Virus record (IMG/VR): IMGVR_UViG_3300027413_000025
Strand: one strand, 5' to 3'
DNA length: 29,059 nucleotides
DNA from: a virus
Shown here in pieces: positions 1 to 29,059 of this stretch. Every line of letters starts with the position of its first letter. Position 1 is the first letter of the stretch. A program made the translations under genes and the position numbers. The notes below the pieces were generated by a model that searched no databases, was not told the DNA's origin, and was given only the letters and a program-made list of their open reading frames with translations.

Positions 1-99
1 CAATCAAAACGCTTGAAACTAAAGATCCAAAGACTACAACAACAACTTAATTCCGAAACCGCTAATCAATAGCGGTTTTTTTTTGTCATTTATTTTTTT
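1..99. repeat. 99-bp terminal direct repeat, identical to 28961..29059. Most simply a circular-assembly overlap, so the genome is complete.
   Basis: Read directly: caatcaaaacgcttgaaact...ttttgtcatttattttttt occurs at both ends of the window. Confidence 0.95.
56..84 (+). terminator. Rho-independent terminator (duplicate copy at 29016..29044)
   Basis: AAACCGCT (56-63) pairs with AGCGGTTT (71-78), with a 7-nt loop and then a T-run. Confidence 0.7.
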
Positions 100-1666: not shown

Positions 1667-3397
1667 ATGGCGTCAATCCTGGATCGTTTTACCAATTTAT
1701 TAAAAAAAAATACACAACAAACCGCAGCCGATTATAACAAATCGATTTATAATTGGTTAGGTAATTCAATCGTTTGGAATACTGAAAACGACAATTCTTA
1801 TATTACCGAGGGTTATCAAAAGAATTCAACGATTTATTCTTTAATCAATTTAATTACAAAGGCAGCAACAACAATTCCGTTCCAGGTTTACGAAAAGACA
1901 AACGAAAACGATTATAAAAGATACAAGGCATTGACGTCCGGGATCATGGATTCGTCAACAATACAAAAAGCGGCAATGCTGCAAAAAAGATCGTTGATTG
2001 AATTACATGAAACGGAATTACATAAAATATTAGAACGACCAAATCCGGCGCAAAGTTATAATTCGTTTATGACTGAATTGATCGCGTTCGGTAAATTAAC
2101 CGGGAATCGTTACATTTATGGAATAGGACCGGAAACCGGATCAAATACAAAATATTCCGAATTATACGTCATGCCGTCTCAAATAATGGAAATCGTTTCC
2201 GGAGGGATCATGAAGCCGGTTGATCATTATACTATCGAATATAACGGACAACATAAAATCCCGGCGGAATCAATTTGTCACATAAAAGATTTTAATCCGC
2301 ATTATGACGGGAGCGGATCTCATTTATACGGACAATCGCCATTGAGGGCCGGTTTACGATCATTGACAACAAACAATGAAGCCGTTCAAACCGGAGTTAA
2401 ATATCTACAAAACCAAACGGCGAGGGGATTATTAATGTCCGACGAGGGCGATATTAATGAAGTTCAAGCGAAACAACTAAAAGAAAAATTCAAACAACAA
2501 CATCAAGGATCAAACAATGCCGGGGATATTATTATAACTCCGAAAAAATTATCATGGGTAAATTTTGGATTAAACGCGTCGGACGTTTCTTTGATTGAGC
2601 AATACAATGCGAGTATTAAAGATTTATGTAATATTTACAACGTTCCCGTTCAATTGTTAAATAATACCGATTCAAGTTCCTATAATAACATGAAAGAGGC
2701 GAAAAAAGCATTGTATCAATCGTGCGTTATTCCCGAATTGTTAAAGATTAAAGACGAATTAAATCGTTGGTTGGCGCCAAAGTATGGCGAAAATCTTTGT
2801 ATTGAATTTGATTTTTCAGTTATTCCGGAATTGCAAGAGGAAACGGACAAGATCGTTGATCAGTTATTAAAGGCCTGGTGGATTACGCCAAACGAAAAAA
2901 GGGCCGCAATGAATTACGGACGTGATGACGAAAATATAAATCTTGACGATTATTATATTCCGTCAAACTTAATTCCGGTCAAAGGGATCGACGAATTGGA
3001 AATCCCGGTTGAATCAATCGACGTTGACGTTGATAAATTTTTCAGCAAAAAAGAAACAATAATAAAAGATCAAACGTTTGACAATTATCCGCAAACCGCA
3101 ACAAACAACGCCAAAAGGATGATCGAATGGCGTGAAAAATACAAAGACGAAGTCAAGGCGGGAACGCCAACGGGTTGGAGACGCGCAACAATGTTGTCGA
3201 ATAGAGATCCTTTGACGATTGAAATGTTAAATCGAGTTAAATCATTTTTTTCGAGACATGACGGGAATCAAGTTATTTCGGATCAGTACAAGGAAACGCC
3301 ATGGAAAGACAATGGATTTGTTTCCTGGAATCTTTGGGGAGGGACTGCAATGAAAATTTGGACCGAAAAAACATTGGACAAGATAAACAAAGAATAA
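1667..3397 (+). CDS. Portal protein (HK97-family Phage_portal) with a ~105-aa C-terminal add-on domain
   Basis: Position after terL and a length of 576 aa. Portal-like core (LIAFGKLTGNRYIYG, PLRAGL..L, NVPVQLL). Extra C-terminal segment from about aa 470 (NNAKRMIEWREKY...WNLWGG). Confidence 0.85.
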   Translation: MASILDRFTNLLKKNTQQTAADYNKSIYNWLGNSIVWNTENDNSYITEGYQKNSTIYSLINLITKAATTIPFQVYEKTNENDYKRYKALTSGIMDSSTIQKAAMLQKRSLIELHETELHKILERPNPAQSYNSFMTELIAFGKLTGNRYIYGIGPETGSNTKYSELYVMPSQIMEIVSGGIMKPVDHYTIEYNGQHKIPAESICHIKDFNPHYDGSGSHLYGQSPLRAGLRSLTTNNEAVQTGVKYLQNQTARGLLMSDEGDINEVQAKQLKEKFKQQHQGSNNAGDIIITPKKLSWVNFGLNASDVSLIEQYNASIKDLCNIYNVPVQLLNNTDSSSYNNMKEAKKALYQSCVIPELLKIKDELNRWLAPKYGENLCIEFDFSVIPELQEETDKIVDQLLKAWWITPNEKRAAMNYGRDDENINLDDYYIPSNLIPVKGIDELEIPVESIDVDVDKFFSKKETIIKDQTFDNYPQTATNNAKRMIEWREKYKDEVKAGTPTGWRRATMLSNRDPLTIEMLNRVKSFFSRHDGNQVISDQYKETPWKDNGFVSWNLWGGTAMKIWTEKTLDKINKE

Positions 3398-5193: not shown

Positions 5194-5883
5194 ATGAATC
5201 AAATATTATACAAAGCGGCGCCCGTTGGCGAATTAATTGACGCGGACGAAAAGGCCGGAATTATAAAAGGTTACGGAAGTTATTTCGGGAATAAAGACTC
5301 GGACAATGACGTGATCATGAAAGGAGCGTATAAAAAAACAATTGCAGAAAACGGCGATCGAGTTAAATATTTGTATCAACATGACATGAATCAACCAATT
5401 GGAAAAATGACGGAGTTATACGAGGATGACAAAGGTTTGGTTTTTGTTGCAGAAATTGCAAAAACACAATTGGGAAAAGACGTTGTTGAATTAATGAAGT
5501 CCGGAGTTATTACAGAAAATTCGGTTGGTATAATGCCAATTCAAAAAACAAACAAAGACGGATTTCGTGAGATCAACGAAGTTAAACTTTACGAAATTAG
5601 CGCCGTTACATTGGCCGCAAATGATCAAGCCAAGATTTTGGATGTCAAGGGAAATATTGACGTTGAAAAACTTGCAAAAAGATATGATAATTTATCAAAA
5701 CTAATAAGAAAAGGAGAAATTTCCGACGACATGGGATTCGCCATTGAAGCGGAAATATTAAAGTTAAAATCATTATTTATTGAATTCACAAAGCCGACGG
5801 AAATCGTCACTTTGCCGAATGTTGAAATAAAAAACAATGATTCGGAAGTGTTAAACTATTTATTAAATTCATTAAAAAATTAA
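5194..5883 (+). CDS. Prohead (capsid maturation) protease, HK97 family (S78/U35)
   Basis: GYGSYFGNKDSDNDVIMKGAYKKTI...VKYLYQHD...PIGK pattern, located immediately upstream of the major capsid gene. Confidence 0.85.
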   Translation: MNQILYKAAPVGELIDADEKAGIIKGYGSYFGNKDSDNDVIMKGAYKKTIAENGDRVKYLYQHDMNQPIGKMTELYEDDKGLVFVAEIAKTQLGKDVVELMKSGVITENSVGIMPIQKTNKDGFREINEVKLYEISAVTLAANDQAKILDVKGNIDVEKLAKRYDNLSKLIRKGEISDDMGFAIEAEILKLKSLFIEFTKPTEIVTLPNVEIKNNDSEVLNYLLNSLKN

Positions 5884-5887
5884 AAAA

Positions 5888-7072
5888 ATGGACGATAAAA
5901 TGAAAGACCAATTGGATTCAATAAGCAAATCCATTGATCAAAAAATTGAAACGAGTAATATTGAGATCGTTGAAACTTTAGTTGCAAAAACAAATGACGT
6001 TGTTGCGACAGAGGTTAAATCAATTAGCGACAATATTAATCAAAGACTTGATGCGATAGAAGTATCAAACAAAAAGAATTTCAGTTCGCCAAAGAGAGCA
6101 ACGTTTAAAAATGCTTTAAAAGAAGCATTGGACAACGGCGCAATTGAGGGACTGCAAAAGGGATTGGATTCCAACGCGAGATTTGTTGTAAAAGCAAACA
6201 TGACGACGGGAGCGGATTTTACCGGAGAAGTAATTCCGGCGAGTAGAGTTGACGGATATAAATTTGATCCAACAAGTCCAACGCACATAAGACAATTATT
6301 GGCACAAGGAAGCACACAAAGCGACGTTGTTCGTTACGTTAAAGAATCGTCGTATTCAAACGGATCAGCAGCAAAAGCAGAGGGAGCGGAATTGAATCAA
6401 AGTGACTTTGATATGACGGCGGTTGACGCAAACGTTAGAAAAATCGGGACTTATTTCCGAATTTCTGAAGAAATGTTAGCAGATACTCCACAATTGACAA
6501 GTTATATTTCAGCAAGAGCGCCGGAAAAACTTATGCAAGTTGAGGACGATCAAATATTGAACGGAAACGGATCATCGCCGAATTTATCCGGAATTATTAC
6601 GGACGCGGCGTCATTTAGTGCCGGAGATTTAGCAAATTCTGTTGAAAGTGCAAATGAATTTGATGTTATTGTTGCAGCGTTAAACCAATTAGCAGCGTCT
6701 AATTATGAAGCCGATACAATTTTATTAAATCCAAGCGATTTTCACAAAATACTATTGTTAAAAGATTCGTCAAACAACTATTTAAAAGACCAAGTTTATA
6801 ACGGCATTTCGCCGGTATTTATGGGCGTTAAAGTTGTTCTTAATACTGCAATCTCGGCCGGAGATTTCCTAATCGGAAACTTTGGTGTTGGGACTCAATT
6901 GTGGGTTAGAGACGGAATCAACGTTGAGTTCTTTAAAGAGGACGGAATCAACGTCAGAGAGGGATTTGTAACAATCCGCGTTTCTGAAAGAGTTGCATTG
7001 ACCAACTATTTACCGAACGCATTCGTTGCCGGAGATTTCACAACTGCAAAAGCAGCATTGGAGACTCCATAA
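5888..7072 (+). CDS. Major capsid protein, HK97 fold, with an N-terminal coiled-coil delta/scaffold region
   Basis: 394 aa and follows the protease. LNGNGSSPNLSGII motif, with a C-terminal region typical of the Phage_capsid family. Confidence 0.9.
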   Translation: MDDKMKDQLDSISKSIDQKIETSNIEIVETLVAKTNDVVATEVKSISDNINQRLDAIEVSNKKNFSSPKRATFKNALKEALDNGAIEGLQKGLDSNARFVVKANMTTGADFTGEVIPASRVDGYKFDPTSPTHIRQLLAQGSTQSDVVRYVKESSYSNGSAAKAEGAELNQSDFDMTAVDANVRKIGTYFRISEEMLADTPQLTSYISARAPEKLMQVEDDQILNGNGSSPNLSGIITDAASFSAGDLANSVESANEFDVIVAALNQLAASNYEADTILLNPSDFHKILLLKDSSNNYLKDQVYNGISPVFMGVKVVLNTAISAGDFLIGNFGVGTQLWVRDGINVEFFKEDGINVREGFVTIRVSERVALTNYLPNAFVAGDFTTAKAALETP

Positions 7073-7096
7073 ATTCGGGATCAAAACCATGAAATG

Positions 7097-7129
7097 GGGA
7101 TCGCATTAATTTGCGGTCCCTTTTTTTTT
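7097..7129 (+). terminator. Rho-independent terminator after the capsid gene
   Basis: GGGATCGCA (7097-7105) pairs with TGCGGTCCC (7112-7120): 9 bp including one G-U, a 6-nt loop, then T9. Confidence 0.8.
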
Positions 7130-7155
7130 GATTAAATAAAAATTCATTATCTTTG
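7127..7155 (+). promoter_or_regulatory. Promoter: TTTG (7127-7130), 17-nt spacer, TATCTTTG (7148-7155)
   Basis: Bacteroidota -33/-7 architecture. No ORF follows it. Confidence 0.55.
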
Positions 7156-7159
7156 CATT

Positions 7160-7280
7160 GAACGTGTTGATCGGATCCGTTGTTGGAGTTTCCGGTCTTA
7201 GTTTTCCCAACTCAAGCCACGTTCACTTGAAAATCCTGGTTGGCCATTAATTTGGCTTTAATCGGGATTTTCTTCTTTTA
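7160..7280 (+). ncRNA. Candidate structured non-coding RNA 1 (about 120 nt, unclassified)
   Basis: No credible ORF. Helix TGAACGTG 7159-7166 / CACGTTCA 7218-7225 encloses GTTGG 7182-7186 / CCAAC 7207-7211. A second helix, GAAAATCC 7229-7236 / GGATTTTC 7265-7272, encloses GCCA 7243-7246 / TGGC 7253-7256 and is followed by a U-rich tail. Confidence 0.45.
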
Positions 7281-7316
7281 TTCCCTTTTAATTATAACTA
7301 TTCACTATTTATTTTT

Positions 7317-7328
7317 TTTGTATATTTG
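7317..7328 (+). promoter_or_regulatory. Promoter word TTTG-TATATTTG with no ORF downstream
   Basis: Exact member of the recurring TTTGTATnTTTG motif. Confidence 0.5.
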
Positions 7329-7332
7329 CAGA

Positions 7333-7552
7333 GTTCCGCCGAGTGGCTTGTCTTGTCAAAGAGGGCATTTCCGGCACGAAAATCCTCTTGTTTTCCGGCG
7401 GAGTAAAGTTTTGGAGTTAGAATCGTTAATGGCTTTGCAATGCAAATTGTACGGCCGCGATATTGTTTTGGGAGCGCCTTAAAATGTTCTCGAAACTTGT
7501 CAAATGCGATTTTGACTCCATTACGATTTTATAATGAGATCGGTTTTTTTTT
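7333..7552 (+). ncRNA. Candidate structured non-coding RNA 2 (about 220 nt, unclassified)
   Basis: Nested helices: TCCGCCG 7335-7341 / CGGCGGA 7396-7402; AAGAGG 7359-7364 / CCTCTT 7384-7389; a 14-bp helix 7412-7425 / 7507-7520 (2 G-U); TTAA(T)GGC 7426-7433 / GCCTTAA 7476-7482; hairpin TTTGC-AAT-GCAAA 7434-7446. It ends in a T-run at 7544-7552. By eye it is more GC-rich than its flanks. Confidence 0.5.
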
Positions 7553-7650
7553 CTACAAAACAACACGTTGATTTCCAGGAGGTTAAATAAAAATTGAAAA
7601 AATATTTTAAAAAAAACTAAAAAAATTCTTTTAAAAGTCAATAATGTTCT

Positions 7651-7658
7651 TATCTTTG
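7651..7658 (+). promoter_or_regulatory. -7 box TATCTTTG, with the leader AAAATTTTTATC abutting the ATG at 7693
   Basis: Motif match plus the conserved leader. Confidence 0.5.
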
Positions 7659-7692
7659 CATCAAACAAACATTAATAATTAAAATTTTTATC

Positions 7693-8100
7693 ATGCAAAC
7701 ATTAAACGAAACAACTCAAAAAGAAATCAGAACATTCAAAAAGAACGTATTATCAAATCTTGAAAGATCAATGATCGGAGATTTAAAAACAATCATTGAC
7801 GTTGTGAGATACAACGACACAAATCATTCATTGATCAACGCGTCAAATGTATCAACAAACTTTAACAGATTAGAAAATTTCATTTGCGGAATTTATGACG
7901 GGTTTTTATACAACAAAGGAATCAACAAGGAAATCAAAACAATCGAAGATTTTTTCAGATCAAACGAAACGGACGAAAAAGTTATGTTGTATCGAGTATT
8001 TTCAAGCGTTGAAAACCTTGTTAAAACAATAAACAATCGTTTGGATGAAATGCCAGGTTTTGAGATTTCAGAAAACGACGCACATGCGCAAAACTTTTAA
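7693..8100 (+). CDS. Hypothetical protein (135 aa), accessory-island gene
   Basis: Clean ORF with its own promoter, leader and terminator. No recognisable motif. Confidence 0.7.
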   Translation: MQTLNETTQKEIRTFKKNVLSNLERSMIGDLKTIIDVVRYNDTNHSLINASNVSTNFNRLENFICGIYDGFLYNKGINKEIKTIEDFFRSNETDEKVMLYRVFSSVENLVKTINNRLDEMPGFEISENDAHAQNF

Positions 8101-8118
8101 AAAAAAACATTAATCAAA

Positions 8119-8142
8119 GGGATCAAATTTTTGGTCCCTTTT
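8119..8142 (+). terminator. Terminator whose arms nearly duplicate the one at 7097
   Basis: GGGATC (8119-8124) pairs with GGTCCC (8133-8138, one G-U), followed by TTTT. Confidence 0.6.
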
Positions 8143-8155
8143 AAATAAAATCAAA

Positions 8156-8323
8156 ATGGTTACAAGAAACAATTTAACAATTATACATGAAAAAGTAAAA
8201 GGATCAAAAACAATCCATGTTCATGTTTACACAAAAGAACAGATCGAAAATCACAACGCAAAAAACAAATTCAATCGTTTGTTTGAAAACTTATTGTCGG
8301 CGTTTAATATAAAGGGCGTTTAA
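8156..8323 (+). CDS. Micro-ORF, 55 aa, hypothetical (below the ORF-track cutoff)
   Basis: Hand translation: MVTRNNLTIIHEKVKGSKTIHVHVYTKEQIENHNAKNKFNRLFENLLSAFNIKGV. Confidence 0.4.
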   Translation: MVTRNNLTIIHEKVKGSKTIHVHVYTKEQIENHNAKNKFNRLFENLLSAFNIKGV

Positions 8324-8359
8324 AGCGTTTTAAGAGGTTTAATTTAAAAAGATATACAA

Positions 8360-8485
8360 ATGGATTACTTAAATTATTTAGATCCGGCAAACGAGCCGGA
8401 GTTTGAATGTAGCGTTTGCGGACGTCCAATGAGCGAGGACAAGGGAGTTTGCTCAAATGTTTGTTTTGAAGCCGATATGTTATGA
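8360..8485 (+). CDS. Micro-ORF, 41 aa, zinc-ribbon-like (CxxC...CxxxC)
   Basis: Hand translation: MDYLNYLDPANEPEFECSVCGRPMSEDKGVCSNVCFEADML. Its stop overlaps the next start (ATGA). Confidence 0.45.
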   Translation: MDYLNYLDPANEPEFECSVCGRPMSEDKGVCSNVCFEADML

Positions 8486-8622
8486 ATCAAAAACATTTAA
8501 AATATTTAATCGCCGGATCAATGATCTATTTTGGATTAAGACAATTCGTTTTGTTTTATGATTGGTATTGTACAATTTATTTATTATTTATTGCGTTTTG
8601 CGTTTTAAGAGTTAAAGATTAG
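8482..8622 (+). CDS. Micro-ORF, 46 aa, hydrophobic/membrane-like
   Basis: Hand translation: MNQKHLKYLIAGSMIYFGLRQFVLFYDWYCTIYLLFIAFCVLRVKD. ATGA coupling to the upstream micro-ORF. Confidence 0.4.
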   Translation: MNQKHLKYLIAGSMIYFGLRQFVLFYDWYCTIYLLFIAFCVLRVKD

Positions 8623-8644
8623 TTTTATTTATGTTGTTTGATCG

Positions 8645-8674
8645 AGCGTCCGTTTTTATGGGCGCTTTTTTTTT
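8645..8674 (+). terminator. Rho-independent terminator
   Basis: AGCGTCC (8645-8651) pairs with GGGCGCT (8660-8666, one G-U), followed by a T-run. Confidence 0.75.
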
Positions 8675-8678
8675 GTTG

Positions 8679-8686
8679 TACCTTTG
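8679..8686 (+). promoter_or_regulatory. -7 box TACCTTTG, 4 nt upstream of the ATG at 8691 (possible leaderless mRNA)
   Basis: TAnnTTTG match with the same geometry as 101..108 and the terS ATG. Confidence 0.4.
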
Positions 8687-8690
8687 ATTT

Positions 8691-9050
8691 ATGACCACGA
8701 ACATAATTGGTTGTATTGCCGAGTACAAATTTGCAGTTTTTGCAATGGAGCGCGGACTCCAAGTTTCATTCCCTTTATTAAATACGTCGCCTTATGATTG
8801 TATTGTCGAATCGAAAACCGGACTTTATAAAATACAAATTAAATCAGTCAAGAAAACCAGGAAAAACAATCGCGTTTTTTTAAGACATGCAGACGGAAAA
8901 TCTTATAAAAATAAAGACGTTGATTTTTTTGCGGTTTATTTTGAAAGAATGAATGGTTTCTTTATTTTCAGATATGCAGACGTCAAACAATCCGTCAAAT
9001 TAGATTCAAAGAAATATTTAAAAAATTTTAATAACTTTGCATTACTTTAA
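8691..9050 (+). CDS. Small free-standing PD-(D/E)xK nuclease (119 aa), resembling the I-Ssp6803I-type PDDEXK_5 family of homing-endonuclease-like proteins
   Basis: GCIAEYKFAVFAMERGLQVSFP...YDCIVE...YKIQIKS, i.e. E ... D ... (Q/E)xK in the spacing of that family. It has its own promoter and is flanked by terminators. Confidence 0.55.
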   Translation: MTTNIIGCIAEYKFAVFAMERGLQVSFPLLNTSPYDCIVESKTGLYKIQIKSVKKTRKNNRVFLRHADGKSYKNKDVDFFAVYFERMNGFFIFRYADVKQSVKLDSKKYLKNFNNFALL

Positions 9051-9079
9051 ATGTTTTCATATTTGTTTTGATTAAAAAG

Positions 9080-9110
9080 GCGTCAAATTTATGTTTGGCG
9101 CTTTTTTTTT
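9080..9110 (+). terminator. Terminator, a near-duplicate of the one at 8645
   Basis: GCGTCAAA (9080-9087) pairs with TTTGGCGC (9094-9101, one G-U), followed by T9. It shares GCGTC..TTTATG..GGCGCTTTTTTTTT with 8645..8674. Confidence 0.8.
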
Positions 9111-9117
9111 ATCTTTA
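9106..9117 (+). promoter_or_regulatory. Promoter word TTTT-TATCTTTA plus the leader CAAAAAATATTTATC abutting the ATG at 9133
   Basis: Recurring motif. Confidence 0.5.
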
Positions 9118-9132
9118 CAAAAAATATTTATC

Positions 9133-9339
9133 ATGAAAGTAAAATGTAAAACCACAATTTTAAGAGACGGAAAACGATTTGAAGCCGGAGACAAAATTGA
9201 TTTACCGGTTGCAATTGCTGCAAGTTGGATCAAAAAAGGTTTGGCGGAAAAAATATCCAAAAAACAAAATAAAGATCAGATCGAAACCAAGGAATTAAAG
9301 GTCGAACATGTTGAAATAAAAAGCGATGACGGAAATTAA
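9133..9339 (+). CDS. Hypothetical protein (68 aa), first gene of the connector operon
   Basis: The ATG at 9133 follows the conserved leader. The track start at 9091 lies inside the terminator loop. Confidence 0.55.
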   Translation: MKVKCKTTILRDGKRFEAGDKIDLPVAIAASWIKKGLAEKISKKQNKDQIETKELKVEHVEIKSDDGN

Positions 9340-9835
9340 AATCACACAAACCGGGAGCGTTGTCGTCGAGTTATCAGAAATCAAAAATTATTTAAGAATT
9401 GATTTTGATTATGACAACGATTTATTGGAGGCGATTTTATGGCAATCAACAATTTTTTGTGAAAATTATATTTCAAAAGATATTGTTGAAAAAACAAGAC
9501 TTTTATTTTTAAGCGAAACCGAAAAAAATATTCTTTTACCATTTGGACCGGTTAAACAAATTATTTCAATAGTTGACGAAAACGATGTCAACATTCCTTT
9601 TAAAATTTTAGGAATTAACAAAGAAAATATTGAATTTGATTCGCCAAAAAAAAATGTTTTTGTTAAATACGAAACGGAGGGGATCCGAAATTCATTAACA
9701 AAACAATCAATTTTGCAATTTGCCGCGACATTGTACGAAAACCGAGCGGATTTTGATCAAGATTCAAAAAGCGTCCAGGAAATACCAACAAAAGTCAAAA
9801 CACTTTTGACATCACTTAAAACAATGTTTATTTAA
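9326..9835 (+). CDS. Head-tail connector / DNA-packaging protein (gp6-like, Phage_connect_1)
   Basis: LSEIKNYLRIDFDYDNDLLEAILWQSTIFCENYI matches the classic N-terminal signature of this family. Synteny supports it. Confidence 0.8.
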   Translation: MTEIKITQTGSVVVELSEIKNYLRIDFDYDNDLLEAILWQSTIFCENYISKDIVEKTRLLFLSETEKNILLPFGPVKQIISIVDENDVNIPFKILGINKENIEFDSPKKNVFVKYETEGIRNSLTKQSILQFAATLYENRADFDQDSKSVQEIPTKVKTLLTSLKTMFI

Positions 9836-20095: not shown

Positions 20096-20103
20096 TATTT
20101 TTG
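20096..20103 (+). promoter_or_regulatory. -7 box TATTTTTG for the replication/recombination module
   Basis: TAnnTTTG match in an AT-rich intergenic region. Confidence 0.45.
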
Positions 20104-20127
20104 CATTAAATCAAAATATTTAAAGAC

Positions 20128-20418
20128 ATGTTTGAAAATCTATTCGTCGCACAAATGAAGCGATTAAAATTAAAGCGTTATGATGTTTGTAAATTGCTAA
20201 AATGCACAATGCCAACATTAAAATCAAGACTCCAAAATCCAACAACATTCACAATTGGCGAGGCCATTATTTTGGCCGAAAACGGGTTTTATTTAAACGC
20301 GATCATGGACTCAATTTTTGAAGTCTATGAAGTGGAATTTCCGCAATTATTAAAAGGAATTTCAAAGGAAAAGAGTAAATTTTTTATTAATTCAAAACAA
20401 GAAAATGAAAACAATTAA
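20128..20418 (+). CDS. Putative HTH DNA-binding protein (96 aa)
   Basis: HTH-like YDVCKLLKCTMPTLKSRLQN. First gene of the module. Confidence 0.4.
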   Translation: MFENLFVAQMKRLKLKRYDVCKLLKCTMPTLKSRLQNPTTFTIGEAIILAENGFYLNAIMDSIFEVYEVEFPQLLKGISKEKSKFFINSKQENENN

Positions 20419-21542: not shown

Positions 21543-22298
21543 ATGAAAACAAAATTTGACACAAATGAAATTTATCATTCGTCGCCAGGAATAAGCGCGT
21601 CCGGATTAAAATCAATTTACAAAAAATCGGTTTATCATTTTTTAAATCAAAAACCTTTTGAATCGCCGTCAATGGCATTTGGAACGGCCGTTCATGGTGC
21701 AATGTTGGAATCCGAAAAATATTATAATGATTTCCACGTCATGCCAAAAATTGATCGCAGAACAAAAGCCGGAAAAGAACAATTTGAAATTGAACAAAAA
21801 AAAGCCGAGGGAAAACAATTGGTATCTTTTGACGATCATTCAAGGATTACAAAAATTCTTGACAATTTCAGAAACCACGAATTAGCAAAAAAATATTGTC
21901 AAGGCGAAATTGAATTATCACATTATAAAAAATTTGAAAATATTGACGTTAGAATAAGACCGGACGTTTTGAATAGAGTTGGCGATTATATTTCAGACGT
22001 CAAAACATGTCAAGACAATTCGCCAATTGCATTCAAAAGAGATATTTATAAATATTCCTATCATTTACAAGCGGCGTTTTACATGGATCAACTCGGGATC
22101 AACAATTTTAAATTTATCGCCGTTGAATCAAATTATCCTTATTCAATTGAGGTTTACACATTAAGCGATGAATTTTTGGATCAAGGCCGTCGCGCATGGA
22201 AAAAAGCGTTTGCAGATTATAAATTGTATAAAGAAAACGGAATTGTTTCCGGTTATAATTGGAACGATTTTGGCGATGACGGAAGTTTAATATTATAA
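21543..22298 (+). CDS. PD-(D/E)xK exonuclease, RecE/exodeoxyribonuclease VIII-like (DUF3799-type)
   Basis: GISASGLKSI, GTAVHGAMLE, IRPDVL...ISDVKTCQD, YHLQAAFY. Confidence 0.7.
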   Translation: MKTKFDTNEIYHSSPGISASGLKSIYKKSVYHFLNQKPFESPSMAFGTAVHGAMLESEKYYNDFHVMPKIDRRTKAGKEQFEIEQKKAEGKQLVSFDDHSRITKILDNFRNHELAKKYCQGEIELSHYKKFENIDVRIRPDVLNRVGDYISDVKTCQDNSPIAFKRDIYKYSYHLQAAFYMDQLGINNFKFIAVESNYPYSIEVYTLSDEFLDQGRRAWKKAFADYKLYKENGIVSGYNWNDFGDDGSLIL

Positions 22299-23270: not shown

Positions 23271-23642
23271 ATGAAAAAAAATCCATTTGATAAATATTTA
23301 AAAGGCGAGGATCTTTTACAAAGGGCCGTCATGAATTATATTGAGTTACAATATCCGGGTACTATTTACACTCATCCAATGAACGAGGGCAAGAGATCCA
23401 AATTTGAACAATACAAAATGAAATATCTTGGCGCAAAACCTGGAATTCCGGATCTTTTAATATTTACACCAAATGGAATTTTTAATGGTTTAGCGATTGA
23501 ATTAAAGTATAAGTACAACAAACCGACAGAGAATCAAAAAAAGTGGCTTAAATGGCTTGAAAAGTGCAATTGGAGCGTCCATTGTCATAATGATTTTGAC
23601 GATTGCGTCGAAACGATTAATAAATACTTTAACAAAGAATAA
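23271..23642 (+). CDS. VRR-NUC domain nuclease
   Basis: KPGIPDLLIF...GLAIELKYKYNKPTENQKKWLKWL. Confidence 0.75.
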   Translation: MKKNPFDKYLKGEDLLQRAVMNYIELQYPGTIYTHPMNEGKRSKFEQYKMKYLGAKPGIPDLLIFTPNGIFNGLAIELKYKYNKPTENQKKWLKWLEKCNWSVHCHNDFDDCVETINKYFNKE

Positions 23643-28912: not shown

Positions 28913-29032
28913 ATGAATAAGATAATAAACATGATCCTAAAGTTAAAGTCCATTAAACCGCAATCAAAACGCTTGAAACTAAAGATCCAAAGACTACAAC
29001 AACAACTTAATTCCGAAACCGCTAATCAATAG
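28913..29032 (+). CDS. Micro-ORF, 39 aa, basic, crossing the circular junction (ends at position 72 in start-of-window coordinates)
   Basis: Hand translation: MNKIINMILKLKSIKPQSKRLKLKIQRLQQQLNSETANQ. Its stop sits in the terminator stem. Confidence 0.3.
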   Translation: MNKIINMILKLKSIKPQSKRLKLKIQRLQQQLNSETANQ

Positions 29033-29059
29033 CGGTTTTTTTTTGTCATTTATTTTTTT
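28961..29059. repeat. Second copy of the 99-bp terminal repeat
   Basis: Identical to 1..99. Confidence 0.95.

Follow-up and report, generated by a model that had tools for sequence, protein, structure and literature searches.

We analysed the gap between the capsid and connector genes of an uncultured virus genome, IMG/VR record IMGVR_UViG_3300027413_000025 (29,059 nucleotides in full, hereafter the window). The first and last 99 nt of the window (1–99 and 28961–29059) are identical, in a repeat that includes a terminator (55–79 and 29015–29039), which makes the window a complete genome, assembled in circular form, of ~28,960 bp. As a sequence-only reading of this DNA had claimed, 2 kb intervene between the two gene sets: ~2.06 kb separate the end of the HK97-fold capsid gene at 7072 from the start at 9133 of DUF7210, the first gene of the connector operon. 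The gap holds two putative RNA genes (RNA1 and RNA2), an open reading frame for an orphan protein (ORF135), three micro-ORFs (m55, m41 and m46) and the gene of a PD-(D/E)XK nuclease. Every unit in the list of that reading, from the terminator behind the capsid gene to the one behind the nuclease gene, was found in the order and at the positions given (Table 1), and the list lacked the own terminators of RNA1 (7229–7283) and RNA2 (7524–7552). We consider it likely that the region combines two parts that have had separate histories, a cargo slot (7131–8155) and a core module (8156–9339). Overall it is a known kind of arrangement, namely a moron or hypervariable slot beside conserved small genes.

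The cultured phages in INPHARED gave no DNA match to the window, and the best cultured capsid protein match was only ~35% identical. Relatives were found as at least 195 related stretches in IMG/VR and at least 176 in metagenomes, and the exact capsid protein of the window was found on 21 contigs. Window proteins were mapped onto 80 IMG/VR loci, 47 of which span the complete capsid–DUF7210 gap, and all gap ORFs were clustered in these 47. The same architecture recurred among relatives: capsid, terminator, A-rich promoter region, 0–6 variable small ORFs or non-coding stretches, m55, a DUF3310 protein (in 28 of the 47 loci, absent from the window), m41, m46, terminator plus -7 box, nuclease, terminator plus -7 box, DUF7210 and adaptor. 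The nuclease gene was present in 47/47 complete gaps, m46 and m41 in 41/47 each and m55 in 38/47, and DUF7210, which overlaps the start of the adaptor gene, was present in those relatives that reach that far. Gap length ranged from ~1.25 to 3.4 kb, and the shortest gaps (L038, L058 and L065; ~1.25 kb in total) had only ~135–145 nt of non-coding DNA before m55. Since the block from m55 to the nuclease was syntenic in essentially all of these relatives, among which capsid identity spans 67%–96%, the right-hand kilobase is core sequence. Extra DNA between elements that are adjacent in relatives was represented by RNA1/RNA2 and ORF135, and not by 8156–9132.

From this comparison we propose that the core module (m55, m41, m46, the nuclease and DUF7210) would be inherited with the capsid and connector genes throughout an uncultured marine phage group. 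The slot would sit right after the capsid terminator, with a conserved promoter on its left and a conserved hairpin element on its right. Different lineages would load it with different small genes or structured RNAs, and the cargo would most likely be swapped through recombination in the conserved flanks.

The terminators of the gap have the features of intrinsic terminators, with a hairpin and a U tract, stems that covary among relatives and U-G wobbles that confer plus-strand specificity. They also share a house style (window 7096–9116 and related loci), in which a TTAATT loop recurs, the tail is T8–T9 and the wobble puts U in the 5' arm, so that the hairpin works on one strand only. Four of the window's terminators form two look-alike pairs, which the sequence-only reading had correctly pointed out: GGGATC...GGTCCC at 7097 and 8119, and GCGTC...GGCGC-T9 at 8645 and 9080. 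Among 123 within-genome terminator pairs from 34 distinct relatives, two terminators with at least five bases in common in each of the two arms were found in the window lineage only, bar L050, where the shared stretch consists mostly of A-run and T-run flanks. The resemblance of the stems has p ~0.01 by our own rough, post hoc estimate. All four positions are occupied in relatives by hairpins with other stems. At the capsid-terminator position, where in the window the T-run provides the TTTG upstream of the next promoter, relatives have, for example, GGGCCTGGAA...TTCCGGGCC; at the 8119 position, before the next conserved gene, they have AAAAACATTAA followed by the different hairpin CCGGCGCG...CGGCGCGCC. 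The pre-nuclease stem varies by lineage yet stays paired (GCCGGTCA/TGGTCGGC, GGCGCTTA/TAAGCGC and CCCAGTTG/CAGCTGGG), and the post-nuclease stem is well conserved with some covarying variants and is followed by T9-ATCTTTAC, which is invariant in 33 sequences. Thus the terminators predate the cargo and were not created by cassette insertion. The look-alike pairs arose within the window lineage, via local conversion or chance.

These observations bear on the model of the sequence-only reading, in which the entire 2 kb is a single accessory island of cassettes that went into terminators already in place, or were copied along with them, and left the look-alike pairs as scars. That model now appears improbable, although the stems do resemble each other in a way seldom seen in relatives and each unit carries promoter-like and terminator-like signals. 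The insertion or duplication origin was not supported at any of the four terminator positions, which are filled by hairpins with unrelated stems in relatives, and the repeat that brackets the RNA insertion is promoter, not terminator, sequence. Presence/absence polymorphism was seen in the left half, where RNA1/RNA2 are lineage-specific and the ORF135 slot is variable, so this part of the claim stood. For 8156–9132 the model is largely refuted, since the nuclease and micro-ORFs are conserved and syntenic in essentially all relatives, an outcome that the reading itself had named as contrary to an island.

Table 1. Genes, RNAs and predicted transcription signals of the gap, with neighbouring genes (window coordinates).
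Feature	Position	Strand	Description
Small and large terminase subunits			first in early gene order (Pfam and PHROG matches)
Portal	1667–3397		follows terminase subunits
MuF-like protein			follows portal
S78 prohead protease	5194–5883		
HK97-fold capsid	5888–7072	+	PF05065
Capsid intrinsic terminator	7096–7130	+	GGGGATCGCA-TTAATT-TGCGGTCCC, T9
RNA1 promoter (predicted)	7132–7159	+	-7 box TATCTTTG at 7148–7155; predicted +1 G7160
RNA1 (predicted)	7160–7283	+	structured RNA plus terminator 7229–7283 (7229–7272, then U-run)
RNA2 promoter -7 box (predicted)	7321–7328	+	TATATTTG; predicted +1 G7333, one base before first helix
RNA2 (predicted)	7333–7552	+	5' domain 7334–7403; 3' domain 7408–7524; terminator 7524–7552
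Conserved slot promoter region	7583–7662	+	A-rich upstream tract plus -7 box TATCTTTG at 7651–7658; predicted +1 near 7663
ORF135	7693–8100	+	orphan protein, slot cargo
Slot right-border hairpin	8119–8142	+	GGGATC...GGTCCC, T4 run
m55	8156–8323	+	55 aa; N-terminal motif MkT.tgLTIIHdg...VnVYT
m41	8360–8485	+	41 aa; four conserved cysteines, zinc-ribbon-like (EFeC.VCg...Csn.Cf.ADq); phrog_34476, E = 1e-3
m46	8482–8622	+	small predicted membrane protein, two hydrophobic helices
Pre-nuclease terminator and promoter	8644–8690	+	GAGCGTCCGT-TTTT-ATGGGCGC, T9, then -7 box
Nuclease -7 box (predicted)	8679–8686	+	TACCTTTG; 4 nt before ATG
PD-(D/E)XK nuclease	8691–9050	+	PF11645, I-Ssp6803I family (PDDEXK_5)
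-7-like box	within last nuclease codons (NNFA)	+	TAACTTTG; synonymous positions invariant
Post-nuclease terminator	9079–9109	+	GGCGTC...GGCGC, T9
DUF7210/connector promoter box (predicted)	9110–9118	+	invariant TATCTTTAC
DUF7210	9133–9339	+	PF23843, 9e-5 (under Pfam cut-off); phrog_2616, 3e-7
Head-tail adaptor	9326–9835		PF05135 / phrog_40
Head closure protein, HK97 gp10-like protein, tail tube, tape measure, replication module			in this order after adaptor

RNA1 and RNA2 together form a ~430–460 bp insertion between the capsid terminator and the conserved slot promoter, found in the window lineage only. The insertion is flanked by a partial promoter duplicate (TTAAATAAAAATT...TTATCTTTGCAT at 7132 and 7583), a 13-mer of which has just two exact copies in the genome, and the promoter segment of RNA1 looks like a shortened duplicate of the slot promoter. 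Each RNA gene would consist of a sigma-A-type promoter, a structured RNA starting at +1 and an intrinsic terminator. The 7-bp closing helix of RNA1 (7160–7166 with 7218–7224) encloses a helix, P2, and a possible pseudoknot (7182–7186 with 7207–7211), and in a by-eye reading of the alignment the pseudoknot helix was favoured over the small hairpin of the minimum free energy (MFE) structure by a G-C to A-U double change. The terminator at the end of RNA1 is strong, with ~17 pairs. The 5' domain of RNA2 comprises an 8-bp closing helix and two hairpins, its 3' domain is closed by a long helix, and its terminator hairpin (7524–7541) leads into a U9 run. The fold of RNA1 was -44.1 kcal/mol (z = -6.5 on the plus strand vs -3.0 on the minus strand) and that of RNA2 was -77.3 kcal/mol (z = -4.75 vs -1.2). 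Indels of 1 and 2 nt relative to L001 break the reading frame in the RNA region, and coding is therefore ruled out.

Flavobacterium promoters have their -7 box at -12 to -5 (PMC9723704); by this rule each RNA would start at its first helix or one base before it, and the nuclease mRNA at the A of its ATG. We infer promoter use and transcription start sites from such motifs; sequence signals of the kind expected for the own promoter and terminator of a moron were present and correctly spaced. The generic TAnnTTTG was not enriched genome-wide (37 matches vs 44.6 expected). The extended TAnnTTTGCA occurred at six sites in 29 kb, all on the plus strand, and four of the six lay inside the 2-kb gap, a clustering with a probability of ~3e-4 by our own binomial estimate. 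Of the other two sites, one (101–110) lies just upstream of a putative small terminase ORF (83–463), the first to follow the genome-end terminator, and the other (20096–20105) closely precedes the ORF at 20128, with which the non-structural, replication-side block begins; these two are likely the main promoters of the genome. The promoter-like motifs match the sigma-A pattern of Bacteroidota (-7 box TAnnTTTG), and the phage appears to be of a marine, Bacteroidota type. Reading by eye, we saw no Shine-Dalgarno sequences upstream of start codons. The slot promoter lies in a region (7589–7692) that aligned at 70–85% identity with nearly all relatives, in which it follows the capsid gene by ~100 bp.

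Three haplotypes of the RNA region were available for comparison. Haplotype A, that of the window, was identical in the five full-length contigs examined, of the 21 with the exact capsid, which came from different samples; haplotype B was found in L001 and L082, and haplotype C, partial, in L162. At 4-fold degenerate sites of 11 flanking genes, the window and L001 differed by 6.1% (30/491), whereas RNA1 had diverged by ~15% and the 3' domain of RNA2 by ~15.5%, or ~2.5x the synonymous sites. The 5' domain of RNA2 showed 1 change in 73 nt (1.4%). Every substitution in a predicted stem relative to L001 retained pairing, including all seven varying pairs of RNA2. As a control for fold retention, random substitutions, matched in number and type, were introduced into the window sequences. 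RNA1 of L001 folded at -39.3 kcal/mol compared to -28.3 ± 5.1 in the control (p = 0.021), and RNA2 of L001 had an MFE of -76.4 compared to -60.8 ± 6.2 (p = 0.007). L162 added two compensatory pairs in the apical hairpin of RNA2, by manual pairing. These results indicate that RNA1 and RNA2 are, as far as predicted folds and substitution patterns go, structured RNAs under selection for their fold. We further infer that they are stable RNAs that act in trans. Two independent contigs of the window lineage from Logan, L162 (1–240) and L163 (1–131), begin inside RNA2 or just past it, and assemblies may break at RNA2 through microdiversity.

Searches for homologues of the two RNAs led back to the window lineage. 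Rfam 15 gave no gathering-level match in the window, and when searched at E up to 10 the best hit at 7000–9200 reached 19 bits vs a gathering threshold of 78. With blastn at word size 7 across 161 loci, RNA1/RNA2 matches were confined to the window lineage; an exact 22-mer scan of IMG/VR returned the L001 contig only, a covariance model of the RNA2 5' domain run over 100 sources returned the window itself only, and a 32-mer scan of 185,000 genomes returned no RNA match. A 20-mer scan gave 13 matches, all of them coding coincidences (products with EIFVPEML or SISGTKIF) in unrelated GC-rich phyla. The best internal complementarity of RNA1, a perfect 13-nt match between its variable loop and the terminase gene at 590–602 (E = 0.04), was considered as an antisense target and attributed to chance because L001 alters both partners without compensation. 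A reading of RNA1 as a mimic of a CRISPR repeat (GUUG...CAAC) was dropped, as the 5' GUUG is not conserved in L001.

The restriction to a single lineage, the want of homologues in Rfam, related loci or 185,000 genomes and the faster-than-synonymous divergence would suit decaying, non-functional DNA at 7131–7560, a pseudogene or recombination scar with incidental structure. We regard this as highly improbable, because the 5' domain of RNA2 changed at 1/73 nt vs 6.1% at neutral sites, substitutions preserve the fold, fold z-scores are extreme on one strand only, the promoter boxes are spaced so that +1 lands at the first helix, and the sequence is unchanged in the five full-length contigs examined from different samples. 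A second alternative holds that the RNAs act in cis, as leaders of the attenuator or riboswitch-like type that adjust how much transcription from the capsid gene, or from their own promoters, reads through into ORF135 and downstream genes. ORF135 does follow them directly, and RNA2 has a weak terminator (G-U-rich stem of 5–7 bp). In all three haplotypes, the closing helix (3' strand) and the terminator (5' arm) both contain CGAUUUU, which would allow mutually exclusive pairings. ORF135, however, has its own promoter, conserved even in relatives without the RNAs, and occurs without them in L035 and L164; moreover, the strong terminator of RNA1 and the absence of a match to any riboswitch family do not favour a leader, and we consider this role unlikely. 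Since the RNAs diverge faster than synonymous sites yet keep their structure, we tentatively suggest that RNA1 and RNA2 might act as decoys or regulators in the conflict between phage and host.

ORF135, the third unit of the slot, had no Pfam or PHROG match. Its homologues amounted to 3 clusters among 5.8 billion proteins and 3 representatives among 1.8 billion, near-identical sequences plus two at 34–36% identity, and its AlphaFold2 model was all-helical with low confidence (pLDDT 51.6). The ORF135 DNA was 88% identical to that of the L035/L164 lineage in a block that runs from start codon to stop codon, compared to 72% for the capsid, 77% for the promoter region, 70–71% for the nuclease and 68% for DUF7210 in the same comparison, and ORF135 was therefore exchanged horizontally. 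Lineage breakpoints lie just past the slot promoter, downstream of which relatives have unrelated orphan ORFs, a methyltransferase or a non-coding RNA. The L057 slot (6124–6969) encodes a 281-aa C5 cytosine DNA methyltransferase (PF00145, 2e-39), a cargo consistent with an anti-restriction role, and because of it an anti-defence or host-interaction role is plausible for the slot. In L053 (1340–1640; also L071, L122 and L139), an unrelated ~280-nt structured RNA (z = -4.5), without a match in Rfam, lies directly behind the conserved promoter. One might conceivably group RNA1, RNA2 and this RNA as RNA morons of marine Bacteroidota phages, an undescribed class of independently transcribed RNAs that change faster than neutral sites but retain their fold; we hold that generalisation to be doubtful. 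If it is true, the pattern would fit arms-race decoys or regulators that, for example, sequester a host defence or RNA-binding protein.

Beyond the slot, conserved motifs mark the micro-ORFs as real genes. Residue changes relative to L001 numbered 8/46 in m46, 0/41 in m41 and 0/119 in the nuclease, and m46 may be evolving fast. The nuclease matched PF11645 at 52.1 bits (cut-off 26.1, E 9e-14) and I-Ssp6803I (PDB 2OST) at 8.6e-5 over residues 3–94. In an alignment of 37 distinct sequences, one of which (L019) is an aberrant non-homologous ORF, E11, D36, Q49 and K51 (window numbering) were conserved in the full-length homologues; D36, Q49 and K51 align with YD...QVK of 2OST, in which E11 is opposite a glutamine. 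In every relative 4 nt (5 in L014) separate the -7 box from the ATG, and a layout of hairpin, T-run, TAnnTTT(G/A) and ATG was seen in the hairpin-bearing relatives, with L053, L057 and L071 keeping the spacing without an obvious hairpin. If the Flavobacterium spacing applies, transcription would start at the A of the ATG, and the nuclease is probably made from a leaderless monocistronic mRNA, a class that makes up ~5.5% of Flavobacterium mRNAs (PMC9723704). The hairpin/T-run/-7 box modules on either side of the gene occupy the same positions in nearly all relatives, and the nuclease, placed between two positionally conserved terminators, would be insulated from the surrounding structural transcripts.

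The nuclease family raises the alternative of an active free-standing homing or marker-exclusion endonuclease that was swept to fixation, whose divergent alleles compete in co-infection and whose targets lie in the conserved flanks. The protein falls above the Pfam cut-off for the I-Ssp6803I family and keeps the catalytic residues, the gene, like T4 seg/mob genes, is flanked by conserved genes and has a promoter and terminators of its own, the family is sporadic in other phage genera, and nuclease similarity does not follow capsid similarity closely. In addition, the flanking intergenic DNA is unusually conserved and has imperfect palindromes, and I-Ssp6803I recognises a 23-bp pseudo-palindrome (PMC3384342). 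No intron was found by Rfam, and the capsid matches its Pfam profile to the last position, ending at residue 384/394. On the other hand, since 47/47 complete-gap relatives carry the gene, there is no empty site to home into, and a gene present everywhere is hardly one that is still homing. Decay would also be expected once a homing gene is fixed, but ORF length and catalytic residues persist down to 43% identity, and 5 base changes relative to L001 caused 0 amino-acid changes. We therefore hold active homing to be doubtful. The lack of both an empty site and decay suggests a function useful to the phage, and the nuclease seems to have been domesticated. The closest structural relatives of I-Ssp6803I include Holliday-junction resolvases and restriction enzymes (PMC3384342), so that a housekeeping or a competitive role is equally conceivable. 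The genome also encodes a DUF3799 PDDEXK-like protein and a VRR-NUC protein (21543–22298 and 23271–23642), two further nucleases of the PD-(D/E)XK superfamily, and the gap nuclease is thus not the sole candidate for recombination or resolution functions.

Behind the nuclease gene, the stretch 9032–9132 was 77–87% identical (mostly 80–85%) at the DNA level in most relatives, exceeding the flanking genes. The -7-like box in the last nuclease codons is followed by a conserved TTTCATATTGTTTTC tract, which is kept in most lineages and deleted in the most distant (L079, L080 and similar). The stretch could contain a conserved ~65-nt transcript or attenuator ahead of the connector operon, and the invariant T9-ATCTTTAC module would restart transcription into the connector genes. 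In the window as a whole, ARAGORN detected neither a tRNA nor a tmRNA.

Several points weigh against a division into exchangeable cargo and inherited core with RNAs selected for their fold. Promoters, start sites and termination rest on motif-based predictions, and with two full and one partial RNA haplotype the covariation support is statistically thin. The faster-than-synonymous divergence could stem from import of an older allele by recombination and not from selection. The core genes may be accessory after all, dispensable yet fixed in the group, and because nuclease similarity across lineages does not track capsid similarity closely, some exchange inside the core module is possible. Finally, the cargo is not atypical in GC content (RNA cassette 0.37 and ORF135 0.316 vs a genome value of 0.34, standard deviation 0.05 in windows of cargo size), so that a classical hallmark of morons is missing. 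On the two-part reading, the accessory hot spot in this abundant uncultured marine phage group is one small slot behind the capsid terminator and not the whole gap, and an own promoter and terminator are insufficient to call a gene accessory in annotation. The leads it offers are two orphan structured RNAs, one horizontally exchanged orphan protein and one universally kept homing-family nuclease that is seemingly domesticated.

Compared to known systems, RNA1, RNA2 and ORF135 resemble the morons of lambdoid and HK97-like phages (Juhala and Hendrix; review PMC3594210) as predicted promoter-gene-terminator units between structural genes that are patchy among relatives and exchanged horizontally. 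Unlike morons, two of the three cargo units here encode RNAs and not proteins, the cargo GC is ordinary, and the right half (8156–9132) is core sequence. No integrase was found among the window ORFs scanned with Pfam, and expression from a prophage therefore cannot be assumed. The nuclease shares its family, E/D/QxK residues and small size with I-Ssp6803I, and with T4 seg/mob it shares a position between conserved genes and the possession of its own signals. The I-Ssp6803I gene lies within a cyanobacterial tRNA gene, in a group I intron, whereas the window nuclease has no detected intron; T4 seg/mob genes have their own promoter and terminators and are sited between conserved genes. Free-standing homing genes are sporadic among relatives, unlike the window nuclease, which is universal and under purifying selection. 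Phage small RNAs (sRNAs) with their own promoter and terminator include T4 RNA species C and D, lambda OOP and prophage anti-sRNAs, and RNA1 and RNA2 are likewise short, structured, intergenic and, by prediction, independently transcribed. They differ from these in having neither similarity to a described family nor a conserved antisense partner, and in a host of Bacteroidota type. In Botstein's modular theory, phage genomes are mosaics with hypervariable regions bounded by conserved linker sequences; here, similarly, a promoter and a hairpin element bracket lineage-specific cargo, and identity jumps at the boundaries of ORF135. Unlike such linkers, the flanks of this slot are predicted to be functional transcription signals and not the ends of coding sequences, and the cargo between them includes structured RNAs.

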